Source: Candidatus Nomurabacteria bacterium (lineage in GTDB: Bacteria; Patescibacteriota; Minisyncoccia; Phycocordibacterales; UBA10002). Taken from it: a stretch of DNA of 64,000 nt. Within the stretch, counting starts at the first letter, position 1; each line of letters starts with the position of its first letter. The DNA lies in assembly GCA_943354745.1 (NCBI GenBank), contig CALRDB010000001.1:203-64202 (forward strand), given 5' to 3'. Both the position numbers and the translations under genes were made by a program. The notes under the pieces were generated by a model. The model had not been told where the DNA came from, did no database searches, and saw only the letters and a program-made list of their open reading frames with translations. Of this stretch, positions 40,711-45,424 are shown in pieces.

Positions 40711-41892
40711 ATGCGTGTCTGCATTATTACAACGAAGTATAACTTCAAGACCTCTGGTGGTTCCGTCGGTGATATTGATTTGCGCGCGCGAGTTCTCACC
40801 AGCCTCGGTCATAAAGTTACGGTCGTCAGTGCGTTTTCAAAATTCAATAGCGACCTTCCCGAGTTTCCCTATCGTTTCCTGGCGGATGAGATTGGAAGCG
40901 CAGGCCTTCTTGGTATACAAATAGGGATATACCGTCTCCTTAAGAAATACGAATACGAGGTAGACATTTTCCATGTGGATGGGCAAGTGTTTCTCTACGG
41001 CGCTGGTCTGTATCGCCTTCTTGGGGGGAAGGCGAAGGTTCTTGGGTTTTTTAATCACTGGCCGAATGCTTGGGCCGATGAGACGGTGGGAGTTACTCAG
41101 AGGATAATTCCGATGTTGCGACCGATTAAGGCGATCAAGAAGCGAGTACGTTTTTTTCTTGAGCGATGGTTTGGGGTCCCCCTTGCCAACTATATGGATG
41201 TTATTATCTACAATACGCCCCCGCTTGCAGCAAAATTCATGAGTTTCGGATTCAAGAAAGGAGATATACTTCCGGACTTTGTTGATACCGAAGGATTGCG
41301 CAAGCAAGAGGATATGGATGTGGAAAAGATTCTCTCCCGGCAAAATCCTTCCGGAGGAATTATCACCTTATTATGTGCCGGTAGGATGTTGCCGGAAAAA
41401 GGGTTTGATATGGTTGTCCGCGCGTTTGCTCAGATTCCTCATAAAGAGAAGTACCGAGTTATTTTAAGTGGTACGGGACCGGAATTCAATTCTCTTAAAA
41501 AACTTATTTCCGACACACATCTTGAGGCGTTCTTTCAGATGCCTGGTTGGGTGGAAAGGAAGACGTTGCTTGGTTTTTTTCGTAAAGCACAAGTTTTCAT
41601 CTTTCCGAATTGGTGGCCGGAGTACGGAGCGATAGTTCTCGAGGAAGCGATGTCGTTCGGTTTGGCTAGCATTATCCCAAGCGGGGGGGCCCTTGAATGG
41701 CTTTCCGGGGGGACCGCCCGTACTTTTAAAAACAGCAGTGTAGATGATCTGGCTCGAGTGATTCAAACCCTCGGAGACAATGTCGGCTTAAGAATTACTA
41801 CAGCCCAAAACGGATTTAAGCACAGTGCCTCACTTGATTATCGGATTCTTGGAGTAAGACTAGAGAAGATACTCCAGTCATCTGTGGCTTAA
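40711..41892 (+). CDS. Glycosyltransferase, GT4 family, with its 3' end clipped by a MITE insertion
   Basis: It has a GT4 N-terminus (MRVCIITTKYNFKTSGGSVGD) and contains a G7 tract at 41683-41689. Its last codon and stop (GCT TAA) are supplied by the terminal repeat of the inserted element. Confidence 0.7.
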   Translation: MRVCIITTKYNFKTSGGSVGDIDLRARVLTSLGHKVTVVSAFSKFNSDLPEFPYRFLADEIGSAGLLGIQIGIYRLLKKYEYEVDIFHVDGQVFLYGAGLYRLLGGKAKVLGFFNHWPNAWADETVGVTQRIIPMLRPIKAIKKRVRFFLERWFGVPLANYMDVIIYNTPPLAAKFMSFGFKKGDILPDFVDTEGLRKQEDMDVEKILSRQNPSGGIITLLCAGRMLPEKGFDMVVRAFAQIPHKEKYRVILSGTGPEFNSLKKLISDTHLEAFFQMPGWVERKTLLGFFRKAQVFIFPNWWPEYGAIVLEEAMSFGLASIIPSGGALEWLSGGTARTFKNSSVDDLARVIQTLGDNVGLRITTAQNGFKHSASLDYRILGVRLEKILQSSVA

Positions 41893-42477
41893 TGGTACTT
41901 TTGTAAGGCTACAAGGCTCCGCCAAGTAATGTTTTAACCATCTTCATTTTTTGATCACGGGACAAACCCGCATGTACGGCGATTGAGTTCTTGATTTTCG
42001 TAAATGAACCGTCAAGTGAATTGGTGGTATTTGGGATATTGAGTTCGGGGTAACGTTCAAACGTGAACAAATACGGCAGATGCCGTTTAATGCTGTCCCT
42101 CGCGCTCCGTAGTTTTCGGTGCGTGTAGGTGTATCGGTTACTTTTTTCATTCAAACTCTTTTCTTTCAGGAACGTCTCCCACTTTTCCGAACGATGATAG
42201 TTTCTCGTTAGTGTCGCTACGGTTGCGTACTGAAAACAAAAATCAAACCAGAGCTTCTTTCTGATTCGAGAGAGGATATCCTTCTTCTTGGTTACTTGAA
42301 ATTGAGTGTTGCACCGGAGGCATTTGTATCCTTGTATACCTCGAAAAAATCCATTCTTTTTTACCAACAACGCCTCACAGCGAGGGCAGGAAATCGTTTT
42401 TTTTGCTCATGCTATTCAAATTACGGCTTACTAAAAGCCTATGTTAGCATTCCAGCCTTACAAAAGTACCATTAAGC
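41886..42477. mobile_element. MITE-like non-autonomous IS derivative with 25-bp perfect terminal inverted repeats and an 8-bp target-site duplication
   Basis: The left repeat GGCTTAATGGTACTTTTGTAAGGCT (41886-41910) is the exact reverse complement of 42453-42477. The direct repeat TCATCTGT flanks the element at 41878-41885 and 42478-42485. Confidence 0.8.
41909..42370 (-). CDS. Truncated transposase-like ORF (zinc ribbon plus DDE C-terminal motif remnant)
   Basis: It is 153 aa with a YKCLRC zinc finger at the N-terminus and NTTNSLDGSFTKIKNS, which resembles the C-terminal signature of ISL3/IS1595-type transposases, but has no DDE core. Confidence 0.4.
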   Translation of the reverse strand: MLVKKNGFFRGIQGYKCLRCNTQFQVTKKKDILSRIRKKLWFDFCFQYATVATLTRNYHRSEKWETFLKEKSLNEKSNRYTYTHRKLRSARDSIKRHLPYLFTFERYPELNIPNTTNSLDGSFTKIKNSIAVHAGLSRDQKMKMVKTLLGGAL

Positions 42478-42534
42478 CTCATCTGTTGCCTTGGGCTCAC
42501 ACACCTAAACGGGTAGTGCTTCTGGCTCGTGGAA

Positions 42535-44037
42535 CTATAAATATGCTTTTTGCGCAATGAGGTCAGCAAGAGGCTCTAGTTCATGGGCACGCTTTTTGAG
42601 TGTTGAACCACCTTCGATATCCCAGATTTGAACGAGGTCAACGTCGACACTAGCCTTGAACACGGCGGTTAAGTAGTCAGTTAATTCTCTTTCGTTATGG
42701 ATGAATGTTGCTAGATGTTCTTTTATTGTCTCGGCAAGAAATTCTGGCGCGATGCATTTTCGAGCCATCGATAGTTTATTGTAGGGAACATCGCCGAAAG
42801 TGATAACTGGCTTTTTAAATAGGAGTGCTTCCCAGCCGACGCTGCTTGAGATTGTAATAATCAATTTAGCCCGTGCAATCAAATCATAACTGACGACCGT
42901 GGGGGATAGCAGTCTTACGTTGGGAATCTTCTTTAGTTCCTTGTAGTATCTGCGGGATCGTTTCCCGTACATGGTTGGGTGTTCTTTCACACACAACACG
43001 TAATCGATCGGTAGCGACTTGGCGATTTGCCTAGCCAGCCATAGCTGATCGGTATAAAACGGGGCGAAAAGAGCAGTGGAATTTTCGGGTTCAAGTTGAA
43101 GCGGGTAGAATACGAAATTCTGATCCAAAGTAAGGGTGTCGTATAAATCATCAAAACCAATAAATACGCGCACCTTCTGTCTTATTTTATCGATAAAAAA
43201 ATGCCACGGCGTTATTGTACTATAGTCGCCACGTTCGGCGCCGGCCAGGTATTGGTAGGTACTAACAAAAAGCCACTGAATCGAACGCCAGAAATTTCGG
43301 GGCAAAAGAAAGCTAAATTGACGTTTCCTGTTTATGGCTCGAGTGTTGGGCGATTCACCCAACGTATAGGGGAAAGGGCTCTTTCGAAAACGCTGTAAAA
43401 ATTTTTCTGCTTCCTCGCGTTCCTTTGGGAAGTCCATTCCCCGATTTTTTATCTTTTCAAAGAATTCATCCACGTCCGATAACGTTTTGTAGTCGTCAGT
43501 TATCGAATGTTTTGTTCCGATTCGAGTAAGAGTGATGATTTGTATCGGAATGTTCCGCTTTTTGGCGATGCTGTACAGCAGGTAGCTACTTAGCGAACAT
43601 ACAATAGAGAAAATAAGTACATCGGGTTTTTCTTCATCAAGGAACTTGAGCACCGCTTTAGCCGTGCGCTGTAATATTTGTAGCATTTCTTCGTGGGAGT
43701 ATTTCGGTGTATCGTGAGGATATTGGCGCACATGCTGACCGTGGCGGATAATGCGGTCAACTTCAATATGTGGCCACAGGTAGGGAATGCCGTAGTCTTT
43801 TTCCAACTGTTTGAGGAATGCCCAATCGATTATTTCGTCTTTGTAATTTCGCAAAACATCTTCTTCTAAGACGAGTTGTGTGTAAGAAATCTCCTTCTGT
43901 TGATTCAGAAAATCAAAGCTCCGGCGCGTCTGCACGAAACCACAGAATTTTGCGGTTGGATGTTTGTGGTAGATTGAACAGGCGAGTGAGTGCGCGATGA
44001 GTGCAAATCGCCGTTGCATGAAAAAGCAAAGTTTCAT
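42535..44037 (-). CDS. Large GT-B-like 'capsule polysaccharide biosynthesis' family protein with an HP motif (candidate nonulosonate/Kdo-type glycosyltransferase)
   Basis: It is 500 aa with the C-terminal block YVLCVKEHPTMYG...LIITISSSVGWEALLFKKPVITFGDVPYN, and it is paralogous to 56951-58399. Confidence 0.45.
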   Translation of the reverse strand: MKLCFFMQRRFALIAHSLACSIYHKHPTAKFCGFVQTRRSFDFLNQQKEISYTQLVLEEDVLRNYKDEIIDWAFLKQLEKDYGIPYLWPHIEVDRIIRHGQHVRQYPHDTPKYSHEEMLQILQRTAKAVLKFLDEEKPDVLIFSIVCSLSSYLLYSIAKKRNIPIQIITLTRIGTKHSITDDYKTLSDVDEFFEKIKNRGMDFPKEREEAEKFLQRFRKSPFPYTLGESPNTRAINRKRQFSFLLPRNFWRSIQWLFVSTYQYLAGAERGDYSTITPWHFFIDKIRQKVRVFIGFDDLYDTLTLDQNFVFYPLQLEPENSTALFAPFYTDQLWLARQIAKSLPIDYVLCVKEHPTMYGKRSRRYYKELKKIPNVRLLSPTVVSYDLIARAKLIITISSSVGWEALLFKKPVITFGDVPYNKLSMARKCIAPEFLAETIKEHLATFIHNERELTDYLTAVFKASVDVDLVQIWDIEGGSTLKKRAHELEPLADLIAQKAYL

Positions 44038-44167
44038 TTTTGGAAATCCTTATAAAACATTGTATGCTAGTATCAGGTTGACTGTATATCAAACTGTTCC
44101 AGCAGTCAAAAAGTTCTGCTGGCCAGGGGTTAAAACAAGCCATTATTCACTCTAAAATATACGAAAC

Positions 44168-44863
44168 ATGAACAAACATAGTAATTTCCACATAAAGAAA
44201 GATAACGTCTTCGAGGTCAAGGAACTATTCAAGGATATTTCTAAGTTGGTGAAGGTGAAGTACAGGAATAAAACGAGTGAGCTTGATATTTTGGATTTGG
44301 GTTGTGCGTCTGGCGAATTGGCCTACTTCCTCAAAAATGATTTGCAAAGCTCTGGAAAAGTGTGGGGTTTAGACATTTCTCGAGAATTGATAAAAAACGC
44401 CAAACAACGCTTTGGCGGATCTAATGTAAAATTTTTTGCTGCAGACGCTTATAATTTTAAGACCGATGTAAAATTTGATGTGGTGACTATGACATCGGTT
44501 CTTTCTTATTTTGACGATCCTTTCCCAGCTATAAAGAATTTGCTCAATCTTTTAAAAGATGATGGTATCGCTGTAATATCCGGCATCTTTAATCCTTGGA
44601 ATATAGACGTTAAGTTGAACTTTAGGGTTCAAGGTGACACAGGGTGGGAGAATTTTCATCAGTTTTCTCTAAGTCGTATTCAGAAATTTATAACTGATGC
44701 CGGCTACGTCTGTAGGATTTCGGAACAGATTATGCCGTTTGATATTCCAATGAAGGAAAATCTTCTCAGATCCTGGACGGTAAACTTGGACGGTAACAGG
44801 TATATGATGAACGGGCTACAGTTGGCCTACAACATTCGTATACTTCAGATAACAAAAAAATAA
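44168..44863 (+). CDS. Class I SAM-dependent methyltransferase
   Basis: It has ILDLGCASGELA and LKDDGIAVISG motifs. Confidence 0.65.
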   Translation: MNKHSNFHIKKDNVFEVKELFKDISKLVKVKYRNKTSELDILDLGCASGELAYFLKNDLQSSGKVWGLDISRELIKNAKQRFGGSNVKFFAADAYNFKTDVKFDVVTMTSVLSYFDDPFPAIKNLLNLLKDDGIAVISGIFNPWNIDVKLNFRVQGDTGWENFHQFSLSRIQKFITDAGYVCRISEQIMPFDIPMKENLLRSWTVNLDGNRYMMNGLQLAYNIRILQITKK

Positions 44864-44875
44864 GAGAATATTTCT

Positions 44876-45424
44876 ATGTTTTTAAAAGAATGTATACAGC
44901 GGATTCGCTTTTGGCGTCGAGCTGACCGTATTGGTCCAGACATGCCGTGGACACACTGGCGACTCTTTTTTCCTTCAAGGATGAAGAATCTTTGTCAGAA
45001 AAGATTTCGTCACTTTGACCCGACTGCTGAAATACGCCCTGGTTCCTACATCCTCGCTTGTTCCAAGATAAGTATCGGTAAGCGCGTAGTTGTTCGTCCT
45101 GGCAGTGTATTTGAGGCCGATCCGCGAGAAGGTGAACACGGGATCACTATTGAGGATGATGTGCTTCTTTCTCCCGGAGTACACCTCTATGTGAATGACC
45201 ATGCGTTTGAAGATACAAGTATGCCAATCTTTGACCAAGATCATAAGCCATCTAAACCGATTACGATCAAACGAGGTTCGTGGATTGGTGCCAATGCTAT
45301 TATTTTGGCGGGAGTGACGATTGGAGAGAACAGTGTTGTGGGGGCGGGGAGTATCGTTACTAAAAATGTACCGCCTCGCGTTGTAGTGGCGGGTAGCCCC
45401 GCCAAGATTATACGTGTTCTGTAG
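44876..45424 (+). CDS. Hexapeptide-repeat (LbH) acetyltransferase
   Basis: It has left-handed beta-helix repeats (ITIKRGSWIGANAIILAGVTIGENSVVGAGSIVTKNV). Confidence 0.7.
   Translation: MFLKECIQRIRFWRRADRIGPDMPWTHWRLFFPSRMKNLCQKRFRHFDPTAEIRPGSYILACSKISIGKRVVVRPGSVFEADPREGEHGITIEDDVLLSPGVHLYVNDHAFEDTSMPIFDQDHKPSKPITIKRGSWIGANAIILAGVTIGENSVVGAGSIVTKNVPPRVVVAGSPAKIIRVL

Follow-up and report, generated by a model that had tools for sequence, protein, structure and literature searches.

The closest described relatives of the element reported here belong to the IS256 family of insertion sequences (IS). In ISCth4, a member of this family, the transposase has a DDE triad and a C/DxxH motif in an alpha-helical insertion domain, TGTAAA is present in the terminal inverted repeats (TIRs), and the target-site duplications (TSDs) are 8 bp long (PMC7780238). 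Both IS256 and ISCth4 are known to transpose by a copy-out/paste-in route via a circular intermediate (PMC7780238). In IS1447, of the IS3 family, the transposase is made by transcriptional slippage on an A-run, for which seven A's suffice and which occurs at a frequency of about 16% (PMC6211511). Other Mutator-related IS, e.g., ISMich2, have also been inferred to use conserved frameshifts (PMC3942029). The element described below lies in a 64,000-nucleotide stretch (hereafter, the window) of contig CALRDB010000001.1 from a Candidatus Nomurabacteria bacterium, one of the Patescibacteria (candidate phyla radiation, CPR). It is very probably an ordinary defective copy of an IS256-type element of the Zn-binding variant, produced by insertion of the IS into the end of a GT4 glycosyltransferase gene and by an internal deletion.

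Two copies of the 25-mer GGCTTAATGGTACTTTTGTAAGGCT, and no more, are present in the 64-kb window, at 41886-41910 (+) and 42454-42478 (-); allowing up to three mismatches added none, and 100 shuffles gave none. These perfect 25-bp TIRs bound an element of 593 bp (41886-42478), and an 8-bp direct repeat, TCATCTGT, abuts both of its ends; the chance of an exact adjacent 8-mer repeat is ~1.5e-5. An earlier model-made reading of the DNA alone (the original prediction) had already reported the perfect 25-bp repeat and the target duplication directly outside it, placing the right arm at 42453-42477, one nucleotide too low. The TIR at 41886-41910 includes TGTAAG, near the subterminal TGTAAA motif of the IS256 family. 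The boundary features are:

41878-41885, no strand: left copy of the TSD, TCATCTGT, identical to 42479-42486 and directly outside the TIR
41886-41910, plus strand: TIR at the transposase-3' end of the IS, sharing every base with the termini of six full-length relatives (L001, L002, L008, L013, L017 and L018)
42454-42478, minus strand: TIR at the transposase-5' end of the IS, a match to GGCTTAATGGTACTTTTGTAAGGCT
42479-42486, no strand: right copy of the TSD, TCATCTGT, identical to 41878-41885

The TIR pair is the strongest inverted repeat of the whole window, and it sits between convergent genes of a glycan-synthesis cluster (GT4 and a capsule-synthesis-like gene), a position that would suit a structural inverted repeat such as a terminator or regulatory hairpin, with the 8-bp repeat a coincidence. 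The arms, however, are 543 bp apart around transposase-derived coding sequence, ends of the same sequence delimit ~1-kb elements at unrelated positions across many genomes, and the family makes 8-bp duplications. That the structure was never mobile is thus wildly improbable.

When the element and one copy of TCATCTGT are removed in silico, a 398-aa open reading frame (ORF) ending ...SSVALGSHT* is restored, with its stop at 42506-42508. The gene today encodes 393 aa and ends ...SSVA* at 41892, its Ala codon and TAA stop coming from the outer GGCTTAA of the TIR. The insertion site at the 3' end of the GT4 gene, the two alternative C-termini and the origin of the Ala and stop codons in the repeat were all reproduced as originally predicted; the element displaces the final five codons. 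The reconstructed empty-site sequence is ...CCAGTCATCTGTTGCCTTGG..., and the two parts of the gene are now:

40711-41892, plus strand: GT4/GT1-fold glycosyltransferase in its present form, 393 aa, five codons lost (PF00534, PF13692, PF13439)
42487-42508, plus strand: displaced original GT4 3' end (..A L G S H T *), from the element-excision reconstruction

The C-terminal tails of GT4 orthologues differ in length and sequence, and because the lost residues lie in this variable region their loss is probably harmless and the insertion near-neutral. The recent insertion originally proposed would suit the perfect TSD and TIRs, but the insertion is base-for-base identical in the three assemblies of the locus that were retrieved (ENA ERZ27280297, ENA ERZ27280223 and Logan ERR5863107), none of which is an empty-site allele.

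Full-length copies were collected from the DNA of the relatives P0012 and P0006 and by terminal-22-mer scans of GTDB representative genomes and JGI metagenome contigs. They are 1,027-1,031 bp long, are found in Candidatus Saccharibacteria and other Patescibacteria assemblies and are bounded by identical 25-bp ends; the window TIRs agree at 25/25 bp with the six relatives named above, and the GGCTTAATGGTA terminus is kept in more distant clades. Their interiors are 76-89% identical to the window element, the nearest copies 84-89% (DNA). On the NCBIfam model NF048019 ("IS256 family transposase, variant Zn-binding type"; 304 positions, cutoff 150 bits), the frame-corrected transposase of L002 (312 aa) scored 290 bits across positions 2-298, and P0097 and P0010 scored 251 and 238 bits; the relatives match the model end to end, unlike the window ORF (131.9 bits). 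Sequence matches of the full-length relatives to the IS1249 (NF033544) and IS256 (NF033543) models were weak, and that to the IS1 model NF033558 was limited to the zinc ribbon/helix-turn-helix (HTH) region, residues 8-113. The ISL3 and DDE_Tnp_IS1595 models of Pfam and NCBIfam gave no match, only the N-terminal zinc-binding model NF050000 (IS1/IS1595 type) being shared. The ISL3/IS1595 parentage first suggested for the element had to be abandoned: its parent is of the NF048019 group, and only the N-terminal ribbon is IS1/IS1595-like.

An alignment of 46 relatives shows D68, D122 and D245 (P0010 numbering) to be invariant, with C139 and H142 nearly so. The AlphaFold model of P0010 (mean pLDDT 92.1) shows an RNase-H-like beta-sheet with D68 and D122, an all-alpha insertion from CHFH, and a helix starting at D245. 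Its only strong PDB fold matches are to the ISCth4 transposase, 6xgw_B (TMq 0.64) and 6xg8_A, both with probability 1.00; phmmer against PDB sequences returned no transposase match, and the link to ISCth4 is at the fold level only. Judged by profile and fold, the parent is an IS256-type element with an IS1-like zinc ribbon. As in IS256, ISCth4 and the IS1249 subgroup, an RNase-H-fold transposase with an all-alpha insertion and CxxH right after the second Asp is combined with TIRs of about 25-30 bp, a TGTAA-like subterminal motif and an 8-bp TSD. The NF048019 group differs from those elements in that i) the full-length element is ~1.03 kb with a ~310-aa transposase, vs. 1.3-1.5 kb and ~400 aa; ii) the N-terminus carries a 4-Cys zinc ribbon like that of IS1/IS1595; and iii) in most members of the window element's group the transposase frame is +1 from the ATG. 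At the third catalytic position the CPR clade has an invariant Asp (TTNSLDG, DDD), whereas L050 and L051, the relatives on Aliarcobacter and Klebsiella plasmids, have Glu (TTNxxEG); the TTNSLDG motif of the window (P0010 D245) lies at about 42008-42028 (-).

Duplications of 8 bp flank five independent insertions of the family, which therefore makes such duplications:

Window insertion, in transposase orientation: duplicated 8-mer ACAGATGA
L005/L004, two contig ends of the metagenome-assembled genome (MAG) CAZOIN01: duplicated 8-mer TCGGGGGA
L029-31, P0097-clade element splitting an SpvB/RHS gene on 19-25-kb contigs: duplicated 8-mer GAGAAATA
L046: duplicated 8-mer TAAAAGTG
L048: duplicated 8-mer TTCTTTCC

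The third of these (L029-L031, 1-1176 and 2329-3813) is a 1,015-bp member with a 28-bp TIR; the gene it splits is large and toxin-like, with SpvB/RHS repeats, and the insertion is identical in three assemblies.

Inside the window element, the remnant transposase frame aligns by tblastn with two stretches of a full-length relative as reconstructed, residues 3-77 and 221-311. Its parts are:

41909-42406, minus strand: remnant transposase frame of 165 codons plus stop, with a 4-Cys zinc ribbon, an HTH-like region and then the C-terminal ~90 aa with TTNSLDG (NF048019, 131.9 bits; tblastn)
42311-42388, minus strand: codons for the 4-Cys zinc ribbon, CPRC...(17 aa)...CLRC (NF048018 IS256_N_4Cys, 32.7 bits, cutoff 27; NF050000, 35.4 bits, cutoff 28)
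42178-42187, minus strand: deletion junction, a single copy of the 10-bp repeat GAAAAGTGGG, present in full-length elements as two copies 438 bp apart (alignment and BLAST overlap)

The 153-aa minus-strand ORF of the original prediction exists (41909-42370, TTG start), but the CxxC ribbon ascribed to it is complete only with sequence further upstream: the ORF holds the second CxxC, and the first lies in the same frame (open to 42406) where there is no start codon. This exact ORF is not on record in public assemblies because gene callers skip it. Against NF048019 the frame-corrected window ORF (166 aa) has an E-value of 2.9e-38, and its 131.9 bits fall below the cutoff of 150 because it aligns only to both ends of the 304-position profile, positions roughly 60-212 being deleted. 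On this comparison the window element is a derivative of an NF048019 member and does not encode a member protein. Pfam gave weak zinc-ribbon matches only, and a promoter/terminator scan of the element found nothing above shuffle expectation. A search of 5.8 billion proteins returned 1,416 homologues, the closest of which (216-288 aa) cover about half of the query at 80-97% identity.

In the alignment, the window protein fuses ...HRSEKW to ETFLKEK..., where relatives hold ~146 residues between SEKW and CEKW. At the DNA level, alignment columns 319-756 are absent, i.e., 438 bp or 146 codons, in frame. BLAST aligns the element in two segments, q1-302 and q293-593, which share 10 nt at window positions 42178-42187. 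Full-length copies hold the 10-mer GAGAAGTGGG twice, once in the codons of ..SEKW.. and once in those of ..CEKW.., a pattern typical of deletion between short direct repeats; the junction sequence of the 593-bp form is CGTTCGGAAAAGTGGGAGACG. The deleted segment holds the catalytic D68 and D122 and the CxxH. Only the third acidic residue remains in the window copy, which cannot be autonomous because the first two Asp and the CxxH are lost. Description of the element as an internally deleted, non-autonomous derivative of a DDE-type IS was thus correct. dN/dS against full-length copies is 0.07-0.11, and changes private to the window are 11 synonymous to 4 non-synonymous; on these values, the lineage was a selected, functional transposase gene until shortly before the deletion. 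Four short homologues of 135-172 aa (P0051, P0055, P0041 and P0044) were considered as parallel deletion derivatives and rejected, being merely C-terminal fragments of full-length genes.

From these features we infer the following order of events. A Zn-ribbon-variant IS256 element of ~1,030 bp would have transposed, presumably by copy-out/paste-in as in its family, into the last GT4 codons of a Patescibacteria (CPR) genome, duplicating 8 bp of the target. A 438-bp in-frame deletion between the two 10-bp direct repeats in the transposase gene, presumably through slippage or a microhomology mechanism, would have removed Asp-1, Asp-2 and the CxxH. What would have been left is a 593-bp copy unable to move itself, with its two TIRs, the zinc-ribbon/HTH part at the N-terminus and some 90 C-terminal residues. 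Deletion in situ after insertion is somewhat likelier than transposition of an already shortened element, since no other short copy is known.

The second of these orders would make the element a true miniature inverted-repeat transposable element (MITE), as originally proposed: the 593-bp form would have arisen elsewhere by the same deletion, been mobilized in trans by a full-length member and been inserted here already short. The two TIRs are perfect and the same as in autonomous copies with interiors 11-24% diverged, so that the transposase of any clade member should recognize them; the TSD is perfect, and 593 bp is a MITE-like size. Like bacterial MITEs and deleted-IS derivatives such as MITEAba12, the element is short and non-autonomous, lacks a functional transposase and carries parental TIRs and a TSD. 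MITE birth by microhomology-mediated deletion is documented in other transposons, and the miniaturization of Tc1/mariner elements to Stowaway-like MITEs likewise involved an internal deletion at a short direct repeat, as outlined in PMC3814204. Typical MITEs, however, are multi-copy and non-coding, whereas the window element is a single known copy with an atypical 165-codon open frame and no sign of mobilization. Dispersed short copies were not found: the window holds one copy and, as noted, no further TIR, the JGI contigs and GTDB representatives hold none, no TIR pair in the JGI contigs is 570-600 bp apart, every TIR pair in both collections is 1,027-1,031 bp apart, and none of the called proteins among the 1,416 homologues shares the deletion; these negatives are weak, because neither collection contains the window's own genome, of which the search covered the 64 kb alone, and its short ORF was never gene-called. 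Arrival as a MITE is thus possible but rather unlikely, a one-off deletion in situ explaining the single short copy equally well, and the claim of a new repeat family for this genome finds no second member in the window, the JGI contigs or the GTDB representatives.

The remnant might alternatively have been kept for some benefit of its product. Lacking a catalytic core, such a zinc-ribbon/HTH protein could attach to the TIRs and act as an inhibitor or regulator of transposition, domesticated or dominant-negative, by a logic analogous to that of IS1 InsA and the Tn5 inhibitor. The deletion is exactly in frame, the 165 sense codons are intact together with a leader ATG and an A8 site (described below), the window-private substitutions are mostly synonymous (11 to 4), and the insertion is identical in three independently assembled samples. 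This pattern is also expected of a deletion that is simply recent, and one-third of deletions are in frame by chance. Furthermore, the ORF is not gene-called in any assembly, homologue and JGI searches gave no orthologous short gene in other genomes, and expression would need a frame change in an element with no promoter-like site. A retained regulator accordingly appears quite improbable.

Several observations weigh against an ordinary defective copy. The insertion and the deletion are reconstructed, with neither an empty site nor a full-length parent of >90% identity found. In a GT4 homologue search for the empty-site allele the sole ~100% match has the insertion too, and identity drops to 65-66% in the orthologues that follow; the comparison with strains lacking the insertion that was originally proposed led to the same three assemblies, all of which carry it. 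Likewise, the full-length master transposase that was to be sought did not appear, there being no full-length copy of >89% DNA identity among those retrieved (best copies, 84-89%), a result that also counts against a MITE. An element still under selection, or one still mobilizable, could likewise have an intact 165-codon frame and perfect TIRs. Finally, some full-length copies have no TSD, namely several from metagenomic contigs of 1-5 kb, the copy of the 30-kb contig L032 and that of a closed Aliarcobacter plasmid, and one 3' flank is joined to different 5' flanks across assemblies (L018 vs. L052/53). Most of the TSD-less cases probably represent chimeric assembly or recombination between copies.

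In the TSD-less copies L008, L013, L016, L017, L018, L032, L036, L037, L038 and L050 the flanks, read outward from either end, are similarly A-rich (nAAAAT-like), and L052/53 have a 6/8 near-duplication, AAAGATCA/GAAAATCA. Chimeric assembly, recombination between copies or a target preference could be the cause of these patterns. One full-length copy (L008, 3560-3620 and 4650-4704) lies within a reverse-transcriptase-like gene (..RYADDFVIL / IS / EKERFCIEKMLGLG..) that is in frame across the insertion without duplication. Solo 3' TIR remnants of the IS clade occur in L010/L012, from Parcubacteria GW2011_GWC2_48_17 (LCPL01000013), and in L009/L014 a 5' TIR with about 60 bp is followed by an unrelated signal-peptide gene. 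Copies in other CPR genomes thus decay by routes besides the internal deletion of the window copy.

The start of the transposase gene has an unusual arrangement. The only ATG of the window copy (42410-42408) opens an ORF of 12 codons (11 sense codons and a stop), and the zinc ribbon and everything downstream are in the +1 frame, in which there is no ATG, GTG or TTG between the upstream stop and the first Cys. A UGA-recoded genetic code was tried as the cause of the frame problem and ruled out, the +1 frame being startless even with TGA readthrough. The two features concerned are:

42375-42410, minus strand: frame-0 leader ORF MSKKNDFLPSL*, with the only ATG; the transposase is +1 relative to it
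42397-42404, minus strand: A8 run, putative slippage/frameshift site, in the overlap of the leader and transposase frames; kept in nine diverged clade copies (A7G in L016)

The offset was inspected in the window copy and in L001, L002, L008, L013, L015-L018, L022, L029, L033, L034, L036, L037, L040-L048, L050 and L051. It is found at the A-run in all nine diverged clade copies (dS 0.7-1.2), eight with A8 and one with A7G. It is also found in the P0007, P0097, P0077, P0087, P0119 and P0110 clades, in the IMG/VR lineages L040, L042/43, L046 and L048 and in the Aliarcobacter cibarius plasmid pACIB, so that, of the lineages sampled, about 14 have the order ATG, A5-A8 run and zinc ribbon in +1. The +1 frame of L036 and L050 begins to be open only within the A-run, and the shift must therefore occur in the run. 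Other arrangements were also seen: L041 has one extra A and needs -1/+2, L045 and L047 are in frame with the N-termini MNKKKCPVC and MFKMRCRVC, and an in-frame TTG is available in the Klebsiella plasmid copy. Invariance of the AAA/AAG codons in the A-run is suggestive and not significant alone, 8 of 23 all-Lys columns being invariant. In the zinc-ribbon codons VKKNG, at 42356-42362 (-), there is an in-phase A_AAA_AAG heptamer, a classical -1 slippery motif, which is invariant in 9/9 clade copies; this may simply mirror the conserved KKNG motif.

Clustered at 50% identity, the matches of an exhaustive profile search put 2,758 clusters in this IS group, which occurs in CPR bacteria and also on Aliarcobacter plasmids. 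Among the best 150 of the 2,758 representatives, 89 are N-terminally complete; 20 of the 89 have room for the whole ribbon, and 69 do not have room for the first CxxC. The in-frame representatives that were inspected start M-x-K-K-C-P-x-C. Because the start frame is offset from the ribbon, gene callers and RefSeq truncate these genes or call them hypothetical.

The recurrence of the offset, and the match of the shifted product to in-frame homologues, suggest that codons 3-5 are a site of conserved recoding in this IS group, through slippage or a frameshift to +1. Such a change would consist either of the loss of one A by RNA-polymerase slippage or of a +1 ribosomal slip on AAA AAA N. There is about an even chance that in most of the sampled lineages the transposase is made only after a +1 change in the A5-A8 run, a conserved recoding throttle upstream of every domain, and that the remnant could be expressed likewise, as a dead TIR-binding protein.

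IS1 makes InsA and InsAB', the latter by a -1 frameshift at A6C. IS1 and IS1447 resemble the present group in having an A-run in the transposase gene where a frame change is needed, and IS1 also begins with a zinc ribbon and HTH. They differ in that the run here is at codons 3-5, before every domain, so that the shift would gate the amount of one protein with no fusion of ORFs; unlike in IS1, the change apparently required is +1 (or the loss of one A in the mRNA). Literature searches turned up no account of this IS group and none of recoding among IS256-type elements. If confirmed, the +1 offset at the A-run would be a new position and logic of recoding among the ways in which IS limit their own transposase, and it would explain the mis-annotation of these genes.

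On its own, the window element is an unremarkable defective IS, marking a place where an insertion is tolerated, the variable C-terminal tail of a CPR glycosyltransferase. It also offers a clean case of a short direct repeat in the transposase gene miniaturizing an IS in one step, and it is an entry point to an abundant, barely described IS group that gene callers systematically shorten. It is the recoding-like architecture of the family, more than the defective copy, that merits follow-up. Plasmid relatives in cultured bacteria, labelled "hypothetical protein", are convenient experimental models in which recoding is directly testable: L050 of Aliarcobacter cibarius pACIB (NZ_CP043858.1:195263-196330), in which only a 208-aa internal ORF is annotated, and L051 of Klebsiella pneumoniae p90CM2-MCR-253k (NZ_CP071820.1).

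The glycan cluster around the element comprises genes for a methyltransferase, a GDP-mannose dehydratase, a 126-aa protein, GT4, the capsule-synthesis-like protein, a second methyltransferase and an acetyltransferase. Homologues of GT4 and relatives of the IS come from MAGs of the Parcubacteria group, Niyogibacteria, Taylorbacteria, Saccharibacteria and other Patescibacteria, including groundwater samples. No tRNA, tmRNA or Rfam family at gathering threshold was found across the window (1-64000). The methyltransferase gene at 44168-44863 (window 44000-44900) has a GC content of 0.35-0.38, vs. ~0.45 in neighbouring genes of the glycan cluster, and may have been acquired separately.

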